From contig CP048747.1 of NCBI GenBank assembly GCA_011752475.1, positions 77,584 to 141,583 on the forward strand: a stretch of DNA of 64,000 nt, read 5' to 3'. This DNA comes from Buchnera aphidicola (Microlophium carnosum). Lineage in GTDB: Bacteria > Pseudomonadota > Gammaproteobacteria > Enterobacterales > Enterobacteriaceae. Both the position numbers and the translations under genes were made by a program. The notes under the pieces are model-generated. The model saw nothing but the letters and a program-made list of their open reading frames with translations, was not told the origin of the DNA and searched no databases. Shown here one piece after another: positions 10,192-62,484 of this stretch; positions within the stretch are counted from its first letter, which is position 1; every line of letters starts with the position of its first letter.

Positions 10192-13097
10192 ATGAGTATA
10201 TATCAGAGATGCTTATCTAAATCTTTGATTTTTTTTTCTACGTTCTTTGTAATTTTTTTATTATTTATAGAAAGTAATATTGGATTTAAATATTTTTTTA
10301 ATTTTACTAGTCGTTTTTTTATAGGATTAAAAGCAGAAGAAATATCGGGAAATTGGCGTGATTTTACTTTAAAAAATGCTGAATATAATGCTTTTGGTAT
10401 TTCAATGAGAACAAATAGTGTACATGTGATTCTAGATACTCAATCTCTATTTAAAATGGAAACAAGTTTTAAAGAAATTAAAACAAAAACTTTGATCGTT
10501 TCATCAGAAAACAATATATCCCATAATTTTTTAAAAAAAAATACATCTCTTAATATTTTTAAAAAAAATATTTTTATAAAATATCCCTTAATTTTTCGAA
10601 AAATACATGCAGATAAAATTTTTTTTAAATCGCCAGGAGTACATATATGTTTTTTAAATGTTTTAAGTAGTATAGAGTTAGTTAAAAATAATATTATTTT
10701 TTCACCTACTTATATAAATTCTATTTATTTATCATCAAAGGTTGATTTAAAAAAAAAAATATTTTAAATCATTCAACTTTGAAAGAGAAATTTAATAAAT
10801 ATAAAAAAATATATAGTTTTTTACAATTTTTTTCATATGAACAAAAAAACTTTATTCCCTTAAATATTAATTTTAAATCTTTAAAATGTAATAAAATAAA
10901 ATTTATAGATTATAAAAATAATAATGTCTTTAAAGTAGAGTTCAAAGCTAAAATAGAAAATAGTATTTTAAAAATAAAGAATCTAAAAATAGATTCTTCT
11001 TTTTTAAAAACAAATTCTTATGGAAAAATTTTTTTTAATAATCATGGTTCAACTTCATGTTTTATCAATACTGGAATAATGACGCCGATATTTCATAACA
11101 AAATTATGCATGTTTCATTTACAGCAGGTTTAAGTACTCATAATAAATTTAAATTTAAATTAAAATCTAAAGATTTATATAATATTAAAATTTATGGATT
11201 AGTTTTTTTAAACAGTGTAGATTATCCATTTTTTATAAAATTAAAGAGTAACAATTTATCTTTACCAATTAAAAAAGATTATATATTAAAATTAGATAAT
11301 TTTAATGGTGTTTTGAAAGGAAAAATTAATAATTATTTTTTATCTTTAAAAAATATTTTTACTCTACAAGGTTTTCCTTCAATATTTATTGATATTAAAG
11401 GAAGCGGTAATTTACAGAATATATTTTTAAAAAAAATTAAATTTATTCCAGTTAAACAAAAAAATTTTTATAAAAAAATAATTAATTTAAAAGAAAATAT
11501 TCAACATAATAAATATATATTAAAATTAATAGGAAAAATGAATATAGCAGGAAACTATGATAATAATATAAGTAATTTATATATTCCTAAAATACATTTA
11601 GATGGTAATATCATAAGAAAACAATTCTCTGTACTAGGCTCTCTATACTATAAAAACTTTAATTGTATAGATATTCCTGGAATAGATTTATTTTTAGGAA
11701 AGAATAAATTACATTTCAATGGTTCGTTAGGAAACAAATATAATATTTATTCATCTTTTTATGCTAATAATTTAAATTATTTTACACCTAATTTAAAAGG
11801 TAGAATTAAAGCAAAATTAAATTGTTACGGCGATTATTTATTTCCTACTATTACCAGTCAAATTTTAGCTAGTGATTTAGATTGGAATAATACATATTTA
11901 AAAAATATAAAAATATCTACGAAAATAAATATGAATAATAAATTTTTAGGAAAAATATTAATAGACGCAAAAAAAATTCATTTTAATAATTTTTATATTA
12001 ATACTTTACGTATTCACACTTGTTCTTATAATAATAAACAACATTTTTCTTTTTTATTAAAAAGTCATAAACTATATATAAATTTAATAATCAATGGATT
12101 TTTTAATAAAAAAACAGGAAATTGGAAAGGTTTTTTTAAAAAAGTCAAGATTCAAACTTTTTTAGGACAAGTCAATGCAAAAAAAAATAATTTAATTAAT
12201 TATTATGATTCTAATAATAATATCAGTAATTTTTATCAAGAAAATATTAGAAAAAGAGATAATTTTTTATCCTTTTTACATAACATAAAAATATCTTTTT
12301 TTAATATATTTAATCCAGAACTGCTGAATTTTAAAAGTGAATTATCTATTAATTCACAATTTCAATGGAAATTGAAAAAAAATATTTATGATAGTAAATT
12401 AATTCTAATAGGCAATAATATAAAATTAGAAAAAAAGATCAATAAAAAAATTTTTATTGAAAATATAGATTATTTTAAAATATCTATTCATTTAATAAAT
12501 AATGATTTGAAAAGTAAATGGATGGTAAACAAGATAAGAGACTCATTGCAAAAAAACAGTATCGTAGGATATTTAAATATTATAGATATTTATGATAAAA
12601 AAAATATAGAAGGTGAATTTATTGTTGATCATTTCCCTTTTTCTTTTATAAATTTTTTTACTTTAAACTTTAAACAAGCAAATGGTATTTTTCAAAGTAA
12701 AATAAATATTTTTGGTACTTGGTATCAGCCTAAAGTTTCGGCTGATGTTAGTTTTCAAAATATTTTTATCAGAAGTAATAAAATATTAAAGTATATAACT
12801 TTATTTTTTCCTTATTTTTCAGGAAAAATAGATATTATAAAAATTAATCAAGAAATTATAATAGACAAAGGAAATATATTATTTACACTACATCCATTTC
12901 TCAAGAATTCTACTAATATAGAATGGACTATTGCATTTAATAGTAAAAAAATATCAGTTTTGATTTTTCCTAAAATAAAACTAAAATTTTCTTCTCAATT
13001 GAATTTGCACTATTTACTTTCAAAATATGATTTAATTGGATATATAAGATTTTTATTATTTTATTTTAAAATTAATGAAAAAAATTTTATTTTTTAA
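10192..13097 (+). pseudogene. tamB: tamB/ytfN-like (AsmA-family) gene split by a frameshift in an A11 tract; C-terminus shortened; possibly still expressed through slippage
   Basis: ORF 10192..10767 has a TamB-like N-terminal anchor (…FFIGLKAEEISGNWRDFTLKNAEYNAFGISMRTNSVHV vs E. coli …[37 protein letters not shown]). ORF 10779..13097 lies in the other frame, which is already open from 10746 through the A11 run at 10749-10759. GTWYQPKVSADVSFQNIF resembles the start of DUF490. In E. coli, ppa lies close downstream of tamB (recalled from memory). Confidence 0.7.
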
Positions 13098-13860: not shown

Positions 13861-15201
13861 ATGGAATTAATTAAGGAAATCGAAAAAGAAGAATTATTTC
13901 TTATGAATGTAGTTAAAGAAACTCTTCAACTATCTAAAAATAAAAGTACTGCTGTTGAAGTATTTGTCAAAAAAACAATAGGTATTAGTGTTACTATAAG
14001 AAATAGTATTATTGAAAATGTAGAGTTTAATAGTGACGGTGCATTATTTATAACAGTATATAATAAATTCTCTAAAGGTAGTGTTTCATCAAAAGATTTT
14101 AGTATCAATAGTATTGAAAAAATGTTAGATATAGCTATCAATATTTCAAAGTATTCATCTTCTGATTTTTTTTCAGGTTTGCCAGATATAAAGTTATTAT
14201 GTTTCCATTGTATAGAACTTAACTTATTTCATCCATGGGAATTTAATGTGAAAAATGCAATTGATCTTTGTGTCTCATCAGAGAAAGCAGCTTTTAAATT
14301 TGACAAGAGAATTATTAATAGCGAAGGTAGTTTTTTTAATAGTTATGCAACTATAAATGTTTTTGGAAATAGTCTAGGTATGTTAGAAAAATATAAATCT
14401 ACTCGTTATTCAACTTATAACTGTATAGTTGCTAAAGATAAAAATTCTATGCAAAGAGATTTTGATTATTCTGTTTCAAGAAAAATAGACAATTTAGTAA
14501 AACCGGAAATATTAGGTCAAAAAACTGCTGAACGAGTCATATCTAGACTAGGTTCTCGAAAAATACATACTATGAAATCTCCAGTTATTTTTTCATCGGA
14601 AATATCTCATATCTTTTTTTCGCATCTTGTTCATGCTATTAGTGGTGATAATGTTTATCAAAAATCTACATTTTTAATTAATGATTTAAAAATGAGAATT
14701 TTCCCTGATTGGCTGAATATCGAAGAAAATCCTCATTTAAAAGAAGGATTAGGAAGCAAACCTTTTGATAATGAAGGTGTAATTACAACAAATAAATATA
14801 TTATTCAAAACGGAATATTACAAACTTGGTTATTAAATAGTTACAATGCACGTAAACTTAAATTAAAAAGTACAGGAAATTGCGGTGGAATTTATAATTG
14901 GTTGATTTCAAATAGCAACATATCTTTTGAAGAGCTTTTAAAAAAGATGAATCAGGGAGTATTAGTAACAGAATTAATGGGACAAGGTGTAGATATAATC
15001 AGTGGTAATTATTCACGTGGAGCAGTAGGTTTTTGGGTTGAAAAAGGAAAAATTTCTTATCCTATTAATGAAATTACTATATCTGGTAATTTAAAAAATA
15101 TGTGGAATAATATTATTGATATTAGTACTGATATTGATAGTCGTAATAATATTCAATGTGGATCAGTATTATTATCTGAAATGCAGATTTCTGGAAATTA
15201 A
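13861..15201 (+). CDS. pmbA: Metalloprotease PmbA/TldE
   Basis: 446 aa. [29 protein letters not shown] matches E. coli Pmb[30 protein letters not shown]. Confidence 0.9.
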
Positions 15202-15277: not shown

Positions 15278-15644
15278 TGGTGAAGTTGACCTGTAAGCCG
15301 GGTTCTGTTTTAACAGTCATTCATCTAGATTAGTAATTACTTACTAACTCAAGCAGCCTACCCAGGTTTATAAAGTACGAGCAATACGCAATAATTTATC
15401 CTATATTTGGCTTTGCTCCGGGTGGAGTTTACCATGCCATAAATTGTTACCAATTATGCGGTGTGCTTTTACCACACCTTTTCACCCTGGCCATATTTTT
15501 TATTAAAAAATAGGTGGTTTTTTTTCTGTTGCACTAGTCATAAGCTTACGCTTTCCAGATGTTATCTGGCACCCTGCTCTATGGAGCCCGGACTTTCCTC
15601 TTTTTAATTTTTAAAAATTAAACAGCGACTGTTTGGTCAACTTC
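15278..15644 (-). ncRNA. rnpB: RNase P RNA (M1 RNA)
   Basis: The minus strand reads GAAGTTGACCAAACAGTCGC...GAGGAAAGTCCGGGCTCCATAGAGCAGGGTGCCAG...GGTAAACTCCACCCGGAGCAAAGCCAAATA...GGGTAGGCTGCTTGAG...CTAGATGAATGACTGT...ACAGAACCCGGCTTACAGGTCAACTTCACC. All universally conserved type-A RNase P blocks are present and colinear with E. coli rnpB. This is a clear GC-richer island in the window, judged by eye. Confidence 0.95.
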
Positions 15645-22551: not shown

Positions 22552-22830
22552 TTATATAGGAGGAAATATATCATGATTTTTTTTTTCTAAATCTTTATCT
22601 GTATAAGGAATACTATATTCTTCTTTTTTATCGGGAATGCTGATCCCCTTTGGAACGATTAATTTTTTAAATTGATTTTTTGTATTGTAAAAATCAAAAT
22701 CATCATTTTTTTTAAAATCTTTTAATGTGCAAGATGTTATTAAAAATATATTTAATATTTGAAATATTATTGTTTTTTTAAAAAATGTTCTATAATATTT
22801 TAAGATTAGCATATTGAATGGCTTTTTCAA
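22552..22830 (-). CDS. bamC: Truncated BamC/NlpB-like lipoprotein (signal peptide, lipobox and N-terminal segment only)
   Basis: Lies immediately downstream of dapA, as in E. coli (dapA-nlpB). Lipobox-like ...[44 protein letters not shown] aligns with E. coli BamC [37 protein letters not shown]. Start is TTG 22830 or ATG 22812, and both overlap the dapA 3' end. Only 123 nt remain before the dapE stop, so the globular domains are gone. Confidence 0.6.
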
Positions 22831-23674
22831 GTTGAAAACGTGTAGAATCTAAAATAGGAGTCATGGGTAAACGAAGTGTATCATAATTTATTAATCCTGT
22901 TCTTTTAGCTAGCCATTTTATAGGGATGGGATTAGGTTCTATAAAAAGTGCTTCATGTAATAACATTAAACGATTATTTAGAGATCTAGCTTTAATAAAA
23001 TCTCCTTTTAATGCATATGAGCAAATTTTCATCATTTCTTTTGCAGCAACATTTGCTGTAACTGATATTACACCGTGACCGCCTAATTGTATAAAATCTA
23101 AAGCTGTTGCATCATCTCCGCTAATTAATAAGAAATCACTTGGAACTAATGCTTTTATTTTGTTAATTCTAGATAAATCTCCAGTTGCTTCTTTAATTCC
23201 TATTATATTTTTTAATTGAGCTAATTTTGCAACTGTTTCTGGAAGTAAATCACATCCTGTACGACTAGGCACATTATATAAAATTTGTGGTAATTCAGTA
23301 TTTTCTGAAATGGCTTTAAAATGTTGATATAATCCTTCTTGAGTAGGTTTATTATAATATGGAGTAACAGTTAAACAACCTGAAATACCAGATTTTTCAA
23401 ATCTGTTTGTTAAAGATATAGCTTCTGTTGTAGCATTTGCTCCTGTACCTGCAATAATTGGAATACGGTTGTCTGCCAATTCTAAAGTCAGCATAACAAT
23501 ATTTATATGTTCTTCTTGACTCAGTGTTGCGGATTCTCCAGTAGTTCCAATAGAAACAATAGCTGTAGTTTTATTAGTAATATGATAATTTATTAGTTTT
23601 TTTAAACTTGAATGACAAATCCGACCTTTTTCATCCATGGGTGTAATTAGTGCAACAATACTTCCTTTAAACAT
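22790..23674 (-). CDS. dapA: 4-hydroxy-tetrahydrodipicolinate synthase
   Basis: [17 protein letters not shown]...[13 protein letters not shown]...YNVPSRTG; 294 aa. Strong GGAGGAGGG Shine-Dalgarno upstream of the ATG. Confidence 0.95.
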
Positions 23675-24512
23675 TATTGGCCCTCCTCCATAAAAAATAT
23701 TTTATGGGATTTTTGACACATTTAAAAATAAAGTATATAGAAATTATGAGTATTATGTTTTTAAAATATAATTTTATTTTAAATATAAAAATATTAGATA
23801 ATACGATTTATATTATAAAGTATTAATTATTTAATATAATAAAAAATATTTTTTATTTTAATTTATATTTGATATACTTATCTTTATGTATTAAATGTAT
23901 ATTTTTTAGTTGTTTAGCAATCAAAAAAAAATTCATATATAAAAGTATATTGTTTAAATAAAAAATAAAGATAATAGTTAGTTGTTTTGGGTTATAAATA
24001 TGATAATATCGAGCACTATTATGGTGGAATTTATTTTATTTAATTAGATCAGAAAAATAGTAAAAACTAATAAATGAGTTAGAATAGAAAAATAACTTTT
24101 TTTGATACATCCATGACTTTGATTTGTATAATACAAGATTTTAATATGCTAGACAACAGCGAATTTTTTAAAAAATATAGCATATTAATAAATTAATTTT
24201 TACTACTAATAAACTCTTATTATTTCACACAAAAAATTAAAATTTTTTTTTTAAAAAAACAATTTTTTTATAAAAATTTAGTATTTAGAAAGATAAGTAT
24301 AACAATTTTTATTGTACTCTTTTTAAATTGGTTGTATTTTATAAGTAAAAATACTTAAACGATTTGAATATAAGACTCAATATCAAAAAACTTATTCTAT
24401 TTAAAATATAAAGTATAGCGATATTAATTTTTGAAAGAATTTATAATGTTTTTATATAATTATACTACTAAATAAATATTTACTTAGTAGTATTTATATA
24501 TTTTAAAAAAAA

Positions 24513-25577
24513 TTATTTTCCATTACATTGTGCACGAAATCTTAATAAATGATCCATTAATACAATTGCTACCATTGCTTCAGTTATTGGAACAGCACGT
24601 AATCCTACACATGGATCATGTCTACCTTTAGTGATGATTTGAACTGTTTCGTTATTTTGATTAATTGTATTTCCTACTTTTCGAATGCTTGATGTAGGTT
24701 TAAATGCTACTTTTAATAAAATATGTTCACCATTACTAATACCACCTAAAATGCCACCAGAACGATTAGTTAAAAATCCTTTTGGTGTAATTTCATCACG
24801 ATGTGTACTTCCTGTTTGAGTTACGACTGAAAATCCATCTCCGATTTCTATTCCTTTAACTGCATTAATACTCATTAAGGCATGTGCTAAATCAGCATCA
24901 AGACGATCAAAAACTGGTTCTCCTAATCCTATAGGAATATTTTCAGCAATAATTGTTATTTCGGCTCCAATCGAATCACCTATTTTTTTTAAATTTTTAA
25001 TTGAAGTTTCAAGTTCTGAAATTTTTTCAGTATCAGCACAGAAAAAAGGATTTTTTTCTACTTCTTCCCAAGATTTCAAAGAACATTTAATATTTCCCAT
25101 TGCTGATAAATATGCTCTTACTTTTACTCCATATTTATTTTTAAGATATTTTTTTGCGATAGCACCTGCTGCAACACGCATAGTAGTTTCGCGAGCAGAA
25201 GATCTTCCACCTCCACGATAATCTCTAATTCCATATTTTTTTTCATAAGTATAATCAGCATGTCCTGGTCGGAATATATTTTTGATATCATTATAATCTT
25301 GAGAACGTTGATCACTATTATAAATAATTAAACCGATACTAGTACCAGTTGTAAGTCCATTAAATATACCAGAAAGTATATGAATTTTGTCAGGTTCACA
25401 TCGTGGAGTTGTGTAACGAGAAGTTCCTGGTCGTCTCCGATTTAAATCATATTGTAAATCTTTACAAGATAATTCTAGACCTGGTGGTGTCCCATCAACT
25501 ACACATCCTAATGCTTCTCCGTGTGATTCACCAAAAGTAGTTACACAAAATATTTTACCGATTGTATTTCCAGACAT
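24513..25577 (-). CDS. aroC: Chorismate synthase
   Basis: [36 protein letters not shown]...RPGHADYTY...[10 protein letters not shown]; 354 aa. Confidence 0.95.
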
Positions 25578-38319: not shown

Positions 38320-39641
38320 TTAATAAAACGAAAATAAGTTATTATTATCTAATTTTAAATTATTTCGCCAAGATATTGTCCAGGTGTTTCTTTTTTTATT
38401 TTTTATATTAATAACAAATATTCCTATAGCGCTAATAAAGTTATTGTTATAAAACAGAAGTGGAATTTGGTTACGTAACCAGGGAGGAATATTTTTTTCT
38501 TGCCAAATTTTTTTTATTTTTCTTTTTTTATTTCTTCCTAATATTAGAATGTCTCCTTCATATTGAAAACGAATATTAATTAATTCATTATTTTCAGGTG
38601 CAGGGAGTATCATGCCATTATTATCTTTTATTAATTCTCCTAAATTATTAGGCAGTGTCAATTTTTTATTTTTGTTATGCCAAAACAATAAAGTATTTTT
38701 AATATTAGATTGTGTTTTTATAAAGTATAATGATTTCTTATAACGTCTAATTTCATGTTTTTCTAAAATTATTTTAGGATCTGCGTCTATTCGACTAAAA
38801 ATCATTTGATGATAAATACATTGTATATTTTTATAAGATGGCATTTTTATTTTTTTTAACGAGATCCAATATCTAATTAATGCTGTACATATTTCTTTTT
38901 TTATACTTTTAAAATTTTCAATATTTAAAGAATCATCAAATTTTATAAATACATGAATTTTTTCATGAAGAAAGTAATTTAGTAATATAGTTTCTTGTTG
39001 GCATATATTTGTTGTACGGAAACAATTTTTGATAAAGTAAGGCCATCTTTTTTCTAATATAGGAATAATTTTATTTCGTATAAAATTACGATCATAATCA
39101 ATATTAAAATTGCTAAAATCTTCAATCCAATGTAAATTTTTTTTTTTAGCCCATAATTTTAATTCTTTTTTTGTTTTTTTTAGAAAAGGACGAACTATTT
39201 TTTTTGTTCCAAATGAAGTTTCAAAAGACATACTAGAAAGTCCAGTAGGACCACTTCCTCTTTTTAAAGATAAAATTAATGTTTCGCATTGATCATTCAT
39301 ATGATGACCAGTGAGTAATATTTCATTAGTACATAAATGATTGTATATAATATTATATCGTTTTATTCTTAATCTTTCTTCAAGATTATTTGTGTCTTTT
39401 GCAATGTTAATATTTTCAACAATTAAAGGTATATGATTGGTATCGCAAATTTTTTTACAATGTTCTGTCCATTGTTTTGAAATTAAAGTAAGATTGTGAT
39501 TAATATGAATGGCGCGTATTGTAATACGATTTTTTTTTTTATTTCTAACAACTGATAAAGAAGCACTGTAGAATCTAATCCGCCACTATAAGCTATTAAA
39601 AATGATTTTTTTTTATATTTTTTAATAATTTTTTCGATCAA
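38320..39641 (-). pseudogene. tilS: tRNA(Ile)-lysidine synthase gene interrupted by a frameshift in an A11 tract (possibly rescued by slippage)
   Basis: The upstream frame gives ...KKSFLIAYSGGLDSTVLLYQLLEIKKK (PP-loop SGGxDS). After the T11 run at 39530-39540 (A11 on the coding strand), the other frame reads NRITIRAIHINHNLTLISKQWTEHCKKICDTNHIPLIVENI...ILLTGHHMNDQCETLILSLKRGSGP, colinear with E. coli TilS, and continues as ORF 38320..39300. The 5' start is tentative (TTG 39641). Confidence 0.8.
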
Positions 39642-39673
39642 ATAAACATTACCTATAAATTTATATTTTTTAA

Positions 39674-39747
39674 TACGTTCGAGTGGACTTGAACCACCAA
39701 CTTCTACCATGTCATGGTAGCGCTCTAACCAATTGAGCTACGAACGT
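39674..39747 (-). tRNA. tRNA-Val (anticodon GAC), 3' CCA not encoded
   Basis: The minus strand reads ACGTTCG TA GCTC AATTGGTTA GAGC G CTACC ATGACAT GGTAG AAGTT GGTGG TTCAAGT CCACT CGAACGT A. This gives a 7-bp acceptor stem, a T-loop TTCAAGT and an anticodon loop AT-GAC-AT. It is close to E. coli tRNA-Val(GAC) and is followed by TTA rather than CCA. Confidence 0.92.
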
Positions 39748-39915
39748 AAACATTAAAAAAAATTTTTCTTATTTTGTTTTACAATGTCAATTGTATATTA
39801 TTAATATAACATAAAAATACTTTTTTTTAAAATTTAAAATTAATAAAAATTTTTTGTTTTTTATATTAGAAGTATATACATATAAATTAAAAAATATTAT
39901 TTTTAAGGAGATATT

Positions 39916-40524
39916 ATGTTTACAGGTATCATAAATGGAATTGCGAGTATTGTTTCTATAGATAAAAAAAAAAATTATAGCTATACAGTTAAGATGCCAT
40001 CTATTTTATCTAAAAATTTAAAGTTAGGTGAGTCAATATCACATAATGGATGTTGTTTAACTGTAAGATTAATTAATAATTCTTATATAACATGTGATGT
40101 TGTAGAAGAAACATTAAAAATTACTAATTTAGGAATATTAGAAATTGGAGATGATATTAATATTGAGAGATCAGCAAAATATGGTGATGAAATTGGTGGT
40201 CATATTATTTCTGGTCATATTATGAATACTGCTGAGATTTCTAAAATAGTAAAGTCACATGATACTTGTATTATATGGTTAAAAATGAAAAATAAATTAT
40301 TAATGAAGTATATTTTTTGCAAAGGATTTATTTGTGTTGATGGGATTAGTCTTACTGTTAGTGATATTATTAATAATGAATTTTGTGTAAATATTATACC
40401 TCATACTTTTTCATCTACTACTATAAAAAATAAAAGTCATGGTAGTATTGTGAATATTGAAATTGATTTTTATACTCAAACAATCGTAGATACTACTGAA
40501 CGATTAATAAATAAACGTATTTAA
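39916..40524 (+). CDS. ribE: Riboflavin synthase (alpha chain)
   Basis: [18 protein letters not shown]...[13 protein letters not shown] and an internal repeat ...DGISLTV; 202 aa. Confidence 0.92.
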
Positions 40525-44415: not shown

Positions 44416-45044
44416 AAATTTTCAAAAAAATATTCAAACACGCTTTTTTAATAAGTTTTTTTTCAATTATATCCATATCTGGAACAGTATTCATAAATGA
44501 CATCACAAAAAATAAAATCATTAGTCAACGAGAAAAAGAAAAAAAAAAAATATTAGAAGAGGTTGTTCCTTCGAATATATATAATACATTTAAAAAAATA
44601 TCATATAAAATTAAAAGTAAATTATTAGGAGATTATAAAACGCATAATTTATGGTTATTGTTTAAAAATAAAAAACCTGAAGCAGCAATTGTTGAAACTA
44701 TAGCCCCTGATGGGTATTCGGGCTCTATTTACATGTTAGTAGCAGCATATTTTAATGGAAAAATTATTGGTGTAAGAGTTTTATCTCATAGGGAAACACC
44801 TGGAATTGGAGATAAAATTGAATTGTCTATTTCTGATTGGATCAGTAAATTTACTGGTATGTACGTATCTTCTATAGAAGATAAAGATTTCTCATTGAGG
44901 AAATATGGAGGAAAAATTGAACAGTTTACAGGAGCAACAATAACACCGCAATCAGTAACAAATGCTGTTAAAAGAACAGTGATTTTTATTAAAAATATAC
45001 CGTCAATGTTTGATTTTTTACATAAGGATATTCATGAATATTAA
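44412..45044 (+). CDS. rnfG: Rnf/Rsx complex subunit G
   Basis: 210 aa. [10 protein letters not shown] and [13 protein letters not shown] (FMN-binding domain). Contains an in-frame A12 tract at 44539-44550. Confidence 0.9.
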
Positions 45045-60065: not shown

Positions 60066-60374
60066 ATGGTACTTACAAAATCCGAAATTTCAGAAAATTT
60101 ATTTGAGAAATTACAATTAACTAAAAAAGAATCAAAGAAATTTGTAGAATTTTTTTTTGAAGAAGTTAAAAAATCCTTAGAACAGGGAGAAGATGTTAAA
60201 TTATCTGGATTTGGAAATTTTCAAATCAAGAATAAAAAATCTCGTCCTGGTAGAAATCCTAGAACAGGAGAATTTTGTCTTATAACAGCTAGAAGAGTAG
60301 TTACTTTTAAAGCTGGACAAAAACTGAAAAGTAAAATTGATATTAATTTAATAAAAAAAAATAATGATGTTTAG
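60066..60374 (+). CDS. ihfA: Integration host factor alpha subunit
   Basis: [32 protein letters not shown]...[22 protein letters not shown] matches IHF-alpha. Confidence 0.93.
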
Positions 60375-60469
60375 TATTACTAGAATCATTTTTTAAAAAA
60401 ATTAATAATATATAATTATCTAATTTTTATTTTTTATTTACCAGCAATCACTGAGATCCTTATTATATT

Positions 60470-61245
60470 CGTAGTACATATTGTGTAATAGTTATGTACA
60501 GATATACTAGAGTATTATTCTAGAACTTTTTTTTAAAATTTTTAAAATAAAATTAATTGTGTTGATATATTTTGTTCTAAATAATACTAAAGTTATTCTT
60601 ATTCGTTTTTTTGGTATATAAATAAAACAAAAAGATCTGTTTTTAATTAAAAAATTTAGATGTTAATTAATATTACACTGTATATAAAAAAATAAATGTT
60701 GTTCTTGTATCTACTGCTAAATTATATTTTGAGTTTACCTTTTTTAGATATATCTTATAATAAGAGTGCAGGTATAAATTATATGATTTTTTAGATAGGT
60801 TTTAGTATATTTTTCATTAATTACAAAGTTAAAAATTAGAGAATTTATTATAAATTCTGCATTAGTTAAAGTGTTTTCTTTAATAATTAAAAAGATTAAA
60901 TCTTGTAAAAAATAGCAGTTGTATTATTTTGATGAGTACCGAGTACACTTTTTTTGTAGAAAGTGCTTATCACTTGCTCATATAATCTAATATATCAAAC
61001 GTTTTATTAAGACATGCTAATATTTTTGTATATTTTAGTTGCAAATATAATCACATTCATATGTTAATTACTAATTTTTATTTTTCTAAACTAACATTAA
61101 TCATGTTATTTGCTGTTTTTAAAAGATGTAACAATACAATGAGCACTTATCATAAAAAAATAATAAACGAATAGAGTTTTTTTATTATGATGATGTAATA
61201 AAAGTGCATCATTTAGTCTGTTTTAAATTAGAATCCTTTAAAAAA
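60470..61245 (+). pseudogene. queA: Eroded queA (S-adenosylmethionine:tRNA ribosyltransferase-isomerase) remnant; 5' boundary uncertain
   Basis: Frame 2, 61019-61171: NIFVYFSCKYNHIHMLITNFYFSKLTLIMLFAVFKRCNNTMSTYHKKIINE* aligns with E. coli QueA [51 protein letters not shown]. It shifts to frame 1 for EFFYYDDVIKV (RFFSYGDAMFI). Stops occur at 60983 and 61172. A weaker relic, DLFLIKKFR (DLLVFNNTR), starts at 60634. No ORF of 60 codons or more exists in the region. Confidence 0.75.
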
Positions 61246-61311
61246 TTACAGGATTATAGAGAAGAAATTCAAAATACAGGAGGTGAGAGTATTCTACTGA
61301 TGTGTTTCATT

Positions 61312-62120
61312 TGTATTTTAGAACTAGATACAAAAGAATAAAATTATATAAAACATTGTATAATTTTATAAATTGATCAGGATTTATTCTGACTTATTTT
61401 TGAATATTGTGATTTTTAATTGTTTAGAATTTTGTCAAGTTATTAAAAACAGAGTTCTTTTTTTAAATTATATTAACGAAAAAAATTTATATCTAGAAAA
61501 TTATATAAAATTTTAATTAGATTTAGATTCGAATATTGTCATAATTTTTGATGAATATATTATATATATTAAATATCTAAAAAAATACATGGAAGTTTAT
61601 TATTTTCGCTAAAAAAGTTCTTTTTTATTTTTATAAAAAAATTTATTATTTGGTATTGTTCATAAAAATATATTTATTTTAAAGTAATATTGTGCTAAAA
61701 AAATCAATAAAAATAAATTTTTATTAATATGTATTAGGTAATTGATTTGTTGAAGACTCAAAAATAAATATATAGAGTATTATATTATATTTATTCTCAA
61801 ATACTAAAAAATAAACCTCGTGTTTTATAAGAATAGGTAATCTATAAGATTTTTATATGAATAGTTGATAAAAAAAGTATAGAAATAAAAGATATAATGA
61901 AGTTTAATCTTATTTTAGATAGTATACGTACTTGTTGCACTCTTTAATATTATACTCGTTCTTATTTATACATCGTGTTTACATTATTAGTAGCTCGTTT
62001 AAAATATCAATACATAATTTAGATTGTTATCAGACATTAATGTCTAATGTAAGAATTTCAATAAAAAATAATACATTCTCTAATGTATATTAAATTTTTA
62101 TAAAAAAATAAAATTAATTT
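61312..62120 (+). pseudogene. tgt: Eroded tgt (queuine tRNA-ribosyltransferase) remnant
   Basis: Relics colinear with E. coli Tgt: ILELDTKE* at 61315-61341 (MKFELDTTDG). LDSNIVIIFDEY at 61523-61558 (LGSDIVMIFDEC). KKYMEVYYFR*KS (AKRSMEMSLRWAKRS). NLLFGIVHKN at 61640-61669 (NALFGIIQGS). YTRSYLYI...LLVARLK at 61951-62004 (YSRAYLHH...ILGARLN). Multiple stops and frame changes, and about 300 nt shorter than an intact gene. Sits just upstream of yajC, as tgt does in E. coli. Confidence 0.8.
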
Positions 62121-62148
62121 TCAGTAGTATAATTTTAAGGAAAAACAA

Positions 62149-62484
62149 ATGAATTTTTTAATTCAAAATGCTAATGCTATAGCACATGAAACATCAGAAA
62201 GTGGAAATTCGTATTCTTTAATATTTATGGTTATAATATTTTTATTAGTTTTTTATTTTATGCTTTTTCGTCCTCAACAAAAGAAAGATAAAGAACATAA
62301 AAATCTCATGCATTCTCTTGTTTCAGGAGATGAAGTTATAACAACTAGTGGATTATTAGGACGCATAAAAAAAATTACAAAAAATGGATATATTTTACTT
62401 CAATTGAACGATACAACTGAAGTCTTTATAAAACAAGATTTTATAGCATCGTCATTACCTAAAGGCACTTTAAAATCGTTATAA
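62149..62484 (+). CDS. yajC: Sec translocon accessory protein YajC
   Basis: LIFMVIIFLLVFYFMLFRPQQKKDKEHKNLMHSLVSGDEVITTSGLLGRI...LNDTTEVFIKQDFIASSLPKGTLKSL is colinear with E. coli YajC. AAGGA Shine-Dalgarno upstream. Confidence 0.93.
   Translation: MNFLIQNANAIAHETSESGNSYSLIFMVIIFLLVFYFMLFRPQQKKDKEHKNLMHSLVSGDEVITTSGLLGRIKKITKNGYILLQLNDTTEVFIKQDFIASSLPKGTLKSL

Follow-up and report, generated by a model that had tools for sequence, protein, structure and literature searches.

The 64-kb stretch of the Buchnera aphidicola (Microlophium carnosum) chromosome analyzed here (CP048747.1, positions 77,584 to 141,583; hereafter the window) contains tilS, the gene for tRNA-Ile lysidine synthetase, whose reading frame is broken at a run of eleven adenines (A11). 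The window has a G+C content of 24.5% and carries, in this order, the his operon, gnd, dcd, metG, tilS (minus strand), tRNA-Val, ribE, and rnfABCDGE, a gene order that is also found in B. aphidicola of Macrosiphini aphids. The features on which the analysis of tilS depends are the following, in window coordinates:

38320..39641, minus strand: tilS, whole gene, with a TTG start and a TAA stop; 1322 nucleotides (nt), that is, 3 × 441 minus 1
39570..39587, minus strand: PP-loop ATP-binding motif SGGLDS, read directly off the DNA and aligning to the SGGLDS of 1NI5
39530..39540, minus strand: A11 homopolymer carrying the frameshift (T11 on the plus strand); the in-frame states are A12 or A9
39483..39641, minus strand: upstream-frame product, with 37 native residues, a 15-residue out-of-frame tail, and a premature TAA at 39483-39485
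38320..39531, minus strand: downstream frame, as translated, with 403 codons to the stop and no stop or further indel inside

The original prediction had placed the A11 at 39530-39540, with the PP-loop frame stopping 16 codons beyond it, the other frame running open through it to 38320, and repair by one A more (A12) or two fewer (A9), and all of these points were borne out. The tract lies exactly there, as T11 on the plus strand and as an uninterrupted A11 on the coding strand (...GAA ATA AAA AAA AAA ATC GTA...). The initiating frame, which encodes the PP-loop, reads ...SFLIAYSGGLDSTVLLYQLLEIKKK, then IVLQYAPFILITILL, and then reaches TAA (39485-39483) as the 16th codon past the last Lys of the tract, giving a zero-frame product of 52 amino acids (aa). 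By translation, the frame one base back is open across the tract (VVRNKKKNRITIRAIHINHNL...) and encodes NRITIRAIHINHNL...GHHMNDQCETLILSLKRGSGP... as far as the stop ending at 38320. Because SGGLDS is upstream of the break, translation of only the downstream frame would yield a protein without the PP-loop. When the tract was rebuilt in silico, A12 gave an uninterrupted protein of 440 aa and A9 one of 439 aa, and neither A10 nor A11 gave an open frame. The genome holds no single reading frame for tilS, the gene being 1 nt short at the A11, and this is its only lesion: the TTG start codon (39641-39639; relatives use a TTG at the equivalent place), the PP-loop, and the 403 downstream codons are all intact.

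On the strength of its domain matches and alignments, the rebuilt protein is TilS. The A12 version scored above the cutoffs of TIGR02432 in its N-terminal domain (186.1 bits; cutoff 93.6) and of TIGR02433 in its C-terminal domain (64.6 bits; cutoff 20.2). It also matched PF01171 over residues 14-190 (E=2.6e-60), with the SGGxDS motif present, and carried the domains of the long (E. coli) type, PF09179 (48.1 bits; cutoff 21) and PF11734 (71.8 bits; cutoff 22). The full-length equivalog NF007942 (PRK10660) was covered over positions 15-437 of its 439-position profile with 466.5 bits against a cutoff of 606, a shortfall expected from the divergence of a fast-evolving endosymbiont. The E. coli TilS 1NI5 is collinear with the rebuilt protein (E=5.2e-96, residues 12-412 vs 14-414), and the sole gap, of one residue, falls exactly at the Lys run encoded by the tract. 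The nearest database proteins were the Buchnera TilS of Acyrthosiphon kondoi, of A. pisum-type strains, of Sitobion, and of other assemblies (81-83% identical, 440 aa), so that the rebuilt length of 440 aa equals that of the closest relatives (83% identical).

Long A-runs are common in the window, which has 11 A/T runs of at least 10 nt, and the presence of such a run alone is unremarkable. Within intact open reading frames (ORFs) of at least 100 aa, seven of these runs are in frame (A10 three times, A11 three times, and A12 once), and a further 26 runs of nine lie within intact ORFs. The in-frame runs of 11 and 12, found in the case of A11 in three genes with tilS and ribE among them, are as follows:

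39137..39147, minus strand: second A11 run inside tilS (WAKKKN), in frame; an internal control for homopolymer calling
10749-10759: in-frame A11
39964-39974: in-frame A11
44539-44550: in-frame A12 in the gene at the rnfG position

Breaks at a run affect none of the other genes in the window, and the remaining long runs are intergenic or in ORF-free gaps. What sets the tract at 39530-39540 apart is that the essential gene it interrupts is in all other respects perfectly conserved; nothing comparable occurs elsewhere in the window. The in-frame long runs argue against a systematic undercalling of homopolymers, but not against one single error.

The same break was found in other Buchnera lineages. 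Truncated TilS proteins in a homology search (389, 402, and 326 aa) prompted retrieval of the underlying DNA, to which the DNA of six intact relatives was added. The phase of the tract was read from the spacing between the SGG codons, starting at their first base, and the RAIH codons. In the in-frame genomes of the Acyrthosiphon/Macrosiphum type this distance is 75 nt, with A10 followed by TAT or TAC (Tyr) or with A6 interrupted by G, and in Buchnera of Uroleucon ambrosiae it is 72 nt (A9, KK-NN). The spacing is one nucleotide short, at 74 nt, in the window (A11), in two JGI assemblies, L004 and L005 (samples 3300009482 and 3300009468; A11 in both), and in the complete genome of Buchnera of Uroleucon sonchi (CP047588.1, locus L003; A14). 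The comparison of tract length with relatives that had been suggested along with the prediction thus set A6, A9, or A10 in frame beside tracts 1 nt short in three other genomes. The Lys codons are followed by an Asn codon (AAT) in each of the four carriers, so that A12 is the in-frame state (A15 in U. sonchi). All four are otherwise intact, with the TTG start, 54 nt up to the PP-loop, 397-398 codons after RAIH, and no other lesion.

A neighbor-joining tree of MetG and RibE, also with Dcd and with TilS added, grouped L004 with U. ambrosiae and U. sonchi as (L004,(U. ambrosiae, U. sonchi)) with bootstrap values of 83-99%, and placed L005 outside the cluster formed by the window and its in-frame relatives (bootstrap 90%). 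Since the out-of-frame state is interleaved with in-frame lineages, it has had at least three independent origins or has been repeatedly restored. Relative to A11, the tract of U. ambrosiae (A9) is two shorter and that of U. sonchi (A14) three longer, and for the ancestor of the Uroleucon clade an out-of-frame A11 and an in-frame A12 are equally parsimonious. All four carriers are in the phase corrected by one additional A, which is what the predominant (+1) error of the polymerase supplies. The agreement is a hint that falls short of significance (two-sided p=0.125 under equal phases), and a deletion bias, whether biological or technical, would produce the same one-short pattern. A higher AT content in the carriers was considered and rejected, as the GC of tilS, metG, and ribE overlaps between carriers and non-carriers. 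The split metG of L005 was also rejected as a frameshift, being due to a stretch of N's in the scaffold.

Used as a query, the 52-aa frameshift product matched only the 50-aa stub of U. sonchi, which is too little for a survey of other carriers. A pattern scan of genome contigs returned two loci, from the Buchnera of Pterocomma populeum and from Stammera, the patterns being too specific, and a scan of metagenome contigs returned mostly TilS of free-living bacteria and two more Buchnera-like loci (L006 and L041). In the public U. sonchi record (L003 2385-3709) the gene appears as a 50-aa 'ATP-binding protein' and a 402-aa 'TilS' without PP-loop, the latter beginning MQIRAIH, apparently from an ATT codon; this annotation is a homopolymer frameshift masked by gene calling. 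Pipelines therefore annotate the tilS locus inconsistently, and comparisons of Buchnera gene content can wrongly score tilS as lost or truncated. A separate case is P0047, a 402-aa TilS of the Aphis type of Buchnera from a Logan contig of 4.9 kb, whose C-terminus (...RRNIKKFGKNIIFLLGYVIKFLCYFIMIN) is not the usual ending and points to a frameshift at a different tilS A-run (the IKKIWQE codons) in another lineage or read set.

The part of tilS beyond the break had been described as conserved, which argued against a dead gene, and a downstream dN/dS of about 1 had been named as the sign of the opposite. Estimated for terminal branches (three-point estimate, Nei-Gojobori, codon bootstrap), the dN/dS (omega) of the window gene was 0.22 (95% bootstrap 0.13-0.38), which is like that of the intact relatives, and the conservation claim stood. 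The other out-of-frame genes gave 0.35 (U. sonchi), 0.38 (L004), and 0.33 (L005), five intact lineages gave 0.15-0.31 (sister lineages 0.15-0.24), and the control gene metG gave 0.14-0.23 in the same lineages; because synonymous distances approach saturation in a genome so rich in AT, these omegas are usable for like-with-like comparison only. The terminal dN of tilS was 0.044 in the window vs 0.042 and 0.043 in the intact sisters, and the tilS/metG dN ratio of about 1.5 is the same as in the intact lineages and is not raised. Eight intact Buchnera TilS share 181 invariant alignment columns; the window gene had no substitution in them (0/181), and leave-one-out controls had 1-24. Purifying selection on tilS has continued, as the omega of 0.22, the unraised dN ratio, and the unchanged invariant columns indicate. 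The 403 downstream codons offer 217 single-base changes that would create a stop, and under neutrality the probability of having none is 0.49 at a divergence of 0.01, 0.24 at 0.02, and 0.027 at 0.05.

The need for the enzyme is also apparent in the codon usage of the window. As had been claimed, AUA is heavily used, accounting for 851 of the 18,088 codons (4.7%) in 55 ORFs and for 38% of Ile codons, with 28 AUA codons within tilS itself. Organisms that lost tilS, such as Mycoplasma mobile, decode AUA with a tRNA-Ile(UAU), which would be the route to a genuine loss; we know of no alternative AUA-decoding tRNA in Buchnera. TilS was encoded in all Buchnera examined by Hansen & Moran (2012), lysidine is held to be required for AUA decoding (PMC3439896), and tilS is within proposed minimal gene sets (PMC9035817).

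With a probability of roughly 0.55, we read the A11 as a real deletion of one base from an A12, tolerated because slippage on the A-run would give some full-length TilS. An ancestral in-frame A12 (Lys-Lys-Lys-Asn) would have lost one base while the gene stayed in use, and a minority of expression events would repair the frame at the tract. At the RNA level, the polymerase would slip backwards on the T11 template and add one A, producing an A12 mRNA and, less often, A9 or A15. At the level of translation, a -1 slip of the ribosome on the A-AAA-AAA Lys codons would be equivalent to one extra A. Both routes would lead from AAA-AAA-AAA into AAT-CGT, and the frame-joined product would span ...LLEIKKKNRITIRAIH... 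at the tract. The tract encodes a variable loop rich in Lys that connects the PP-loop helix to the strand after it, and proteins with any of two, three, or four Lys there should be functional; relatives carry KK, KKK, or KKKK at this point, and E. coli TilS aligns with a one-residue gap. Since TilS is catalytic and acts on a single tRNA species, a low yield may suffice for AUA decoding.

According to PMC3017870 (which cites Tamas 2008) and PMC3164680, rescue by slippage, the mechanism suggested along with the original prediction, is already the accepted account of such lesions in Buchnera and Blochmannia: the frameshifted genes are transcribed into mixed mRNA pools, in which about 30% of transcripts are full-length, and functional protein is made. 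Among transcription insertions in Buchnera, 151/157 were within homopolymer runs, and they were mostly single bases from backward slippage at a rate exponential with run length (PMC5574713). Nine A or T in a row are, elsewhere among bacteria, long enough for transcriptional slippage (PMC5009743, PMC1088944), and sliding of ribosomes occurs on iterated AAA codons (PMC4363877). For tilS, the slippage itself, the dominance of one route over the other, and the production of TilS protein are inferred. In tilS, the heptamer A-AAA-AAA is in the zero frame within ATA-AAA-AAA-AAA-ATC and conforms to X-XXY-YYZ. A-AAA-AAA is a classical slippery heptamer, and the slippery sequence of E. coli dnaX is A-AAA-AAG. 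A programmed -1 frameshift stimulator was considered and rejected, as no significant or conserved structure was present: after the tract there is only a 5-bp hairpin (-2.1 kcal/mol, z=0.01), none is common to the four carriers, and no GGAG or AGGA, as in a Shine-Dalgarno-like element, occurs in the 15 nt before the tract. Any ribosomal contribution would consequently be unprogrammed.

Several points weigh against a deletion rescued by slippage. The lesion of the window is known from a consensus sequence alone, an RNA structure or internal Shine-Dalgarno sequence stimulating ribosomal frameshifting is missing, and a very recent frameshift on a long terminal branch would likewise leave omega below 1. 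The survey of Traverse & Ochman had no frame-restoring transcription error (PMC5574713), which tempers the slippage account without refuting it. In-frame A12 occurs in no assembly examined, and every tract with the Asn codon (AAT) after the Lys run (4/4 assemblies) lacks precisely one base; if very long A-runs were systematically miscalled by -1, the result would look identical. L004 and L005 have neighboring JGI sample numbers and may come from one sequencing project or one library protocol. These last points also favor an assembly or sequencing artefact, in which the true tract would be A12 (or A9) with tilS intact, one base having been removed by library-PCR stutter or undercalling, and so do the facts that the tract is among the longest A-runs in the window and that the A12-rebuilt gene is perfect in every respect, as an error would leave it. 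We regard this, the alternative already named with the original prediction, as serious though unlikely, given that the same window has an A12 and three further A11 runs that keep the frame of intact genes and that the separately deposited complete genome of U. sonchi (CP047588.1) has the same defect at another length (A14). Moreover, real homopolymer frameshifts number 8-18 per Aphidinae Buchnera genome, which makes the prior for a real one high (PMC3164680). In that study (Degnan et al.), the two new genomes were deeply sequenced by Illumina and 454 and within-sample polymorphisms were checked in both.

The change in the DNA could also be real and the repair different. Replication slippage might keep a mixture of A11 and A12 among the many genome copies, with the in-frame copies supplying TilS, an explanation that is compatible with RNA slippage and would account for the intact selection on tilS. 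Tract length changes rapidly between lineages (A6, A9, A10, A11, A14), and single-base indel polymorphisms are present within samples of the deep-sequenced Buchnera Ak and Ua (PMC3164680). Such heteroplasmy is invisible in a consensus. It needs long-lasting selection on a minority allele and does not alone explain why the same phase is fixed in four lineages, and we give it a slim chance. Slimmer still is that of a recent true loss, with tilS newly a pseudogene, AUA read poorly or otherwise (for example by an altered tRNA), and decay yet to come. Most pseudogenes confined to a single Buchnera genome do start as homopolymer indels, convergent inactivation is known, for example in murF (PMC3164680), and at a neutral divergence of at most 0.01 the downstream frame is still likely to be intact (P=0.49). 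Four lineages would, however, each have been caught very soon after inactivation, with no second lesion and omegas of 0.22-0.38, in a symbiont with AUA at 4.7% of codons and in a gene that was kept in all Buchnera previously examined and in the minimal gene sets (PMC3439896, PMC9035817). Finally, the one-short state might be a recoding site maintained by selection in low-GC Macrosiphini Buchnera with Asn after the Lys run, where tilS would stay for good in a phase open to correction solely by +1 polymerase slippage or -1 ribosomal sliding, the tract acting as an attenuator that sets a low dose of TilS. This is doubtful and has a small chance of being correct; if true, several symbiont lineages would have in tilS an essential gene whose expression always requires recoding.

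A real deletion tolerated through slippage would resemble the class of Tamas 2008 and Wernegreen 2010. As PMC3017870 and PMC3164680 describe it, that class comprises genes of AT-rich obligate insect endosymbionts with a single indel in an A-run of at least 9-10, otherwise intact and under purifying selection, with the same tract out of frame in several lineages and with essential information-processing genes among those hit (dnaX, dnaG, and pth in Blochmannia vafer). Likewise, tilS has a single indel in A11, an omega well below 1, and the lesion in more than one lineage. It differs from that class, as there described, in that another gene is affected, that slippage at this locus is a proposal, and that the recurrence is apparently convergent and not one ancient frameshift.

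In programmed transcriptional slippage, as in Thermus thermophilus dnaX, insertion sequence transposases, and potyvirus P3N-PIPO (PMC1088944, PMC5009743, PMC4552492), RNA polymerase realigns on an A/T run, so that an extra base is inserted and two frames are joined, as would happen in tilS. In those systems, however, each of the two products has a use and the slip site itself is conserved, whereas the 52-aa tilS stub is without evident use and most relatives are in frame. There is a further likeness to -1 frameshifting on Lys AAA runs, where A-AAA-AAA is read by tRNA-Lys(UUU) and a -1 shift gives the needed frame (PMC4363877), and to chloroplast atpB, in which a homopolymer indel is corrected in an essential gene of a reduced genome (PMC8254509). 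Unlike programmed ribosomal frameshifting, tilS has neither a downstream hairpin or pseudoknot (fold z near 0) nor a Shine-Dalgarno-like stimulator, and unlike organisms without tilS such as M. mobile, the gene here shows no decay and is under selection.

Homopolymer frameshifts are known to be routine in Buchnera, at the frequency given above for Aphidinae, and convergent murF frameshifts have been reported (PMC3164680). No earlier report of a tilS frameshift in Buchnera was found in the literature searched. What is new is the gene affected, an essential decoding-fidelity enzyme, together with the break at the same site and in the same phase in at least three lineages under selection. If the break is real, the symbiont depends on expression errors to make the enzyme that safeguards the accuracy of its decoding. 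Recurrence at the same site also provides a natural replicated test of whether homopolymer frameshifts are tolerated or maintained, and of whether the +1 direction of polymerase slippage constrains which genomic indels survive. The in-frame A11 and A12 sites of the window should themselves yield many frameshifted transcripts and are candidates for the next homopolymer frameshifts.

Two RNA genes of the window were placed as follows:

39673..39748, minus strand: tRNA-Val(GAC), directly upstream of tilS on the same strand
15278-15644, minus strand: RNase P RNA (RF00010, 310 bits), occupying the apparent gap between the ORFs at 15201 and 15677

No terminator-like site was found between tRNA-Val(GAC) and tilS, and the arrangement with this tRNA before tilS is kept in relatives, including U. 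sonchi, L004, and L005. The tRNA-Val(GAC) gene is the only tRNA gene in the window, that for tRNA-Ile(CAU) being absent from it.

Some stretches of the window may be remnants of other genes. Positions 60375-62148 (1.77 kb), between an IHF-alpha-like gene (60066-60374) and yajC (62149-62484), contain no ORF above 53 aa, tRNA, or Rfam match; from the E. coli order queA-tgt-yajC, this stretch may presumably be an eroded remnant of tgt/queA. An ORF-free gap of 840 bp (23675-24512), with T10 at 24243-24252, separates dapA (22790-23674, minus strand) from aroC (24513-25577, minus strand) and may be a decayed pseudogene. At 22552-22830 (minus strand) there is an ORF of 92 aa that shares 41 nt with the 3' end of dapA and has a T10/A10 run at 22577-22586. 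Its position matches that of bamC (nlpB), which in E. coli comes after dapA, so that this ORF may be the truncated remnant of a lipoprotein gene.

Differences were also observed in the rnf genes of the relatives. In the second assembly of the A. kondoi Buchnera (CP113415.1, L051 248-1917) no rnfC was called at the place where the other assembly (CP002645.1, L050) has a 490-aa RnfC, which may be a strain-specific frameshift or a difference between assemblies. In the loci of the Uroleucon type (L003, L004, and L056) the rnf operon is absent after ribE and nth is there instead, while the window has rnf, and in those of Sitobion miscanthi (L054 and L055) no rnf genes were called and only short ORFs are present. 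It looks as if rnf was lost independently within Macrosiphini Buchnera.

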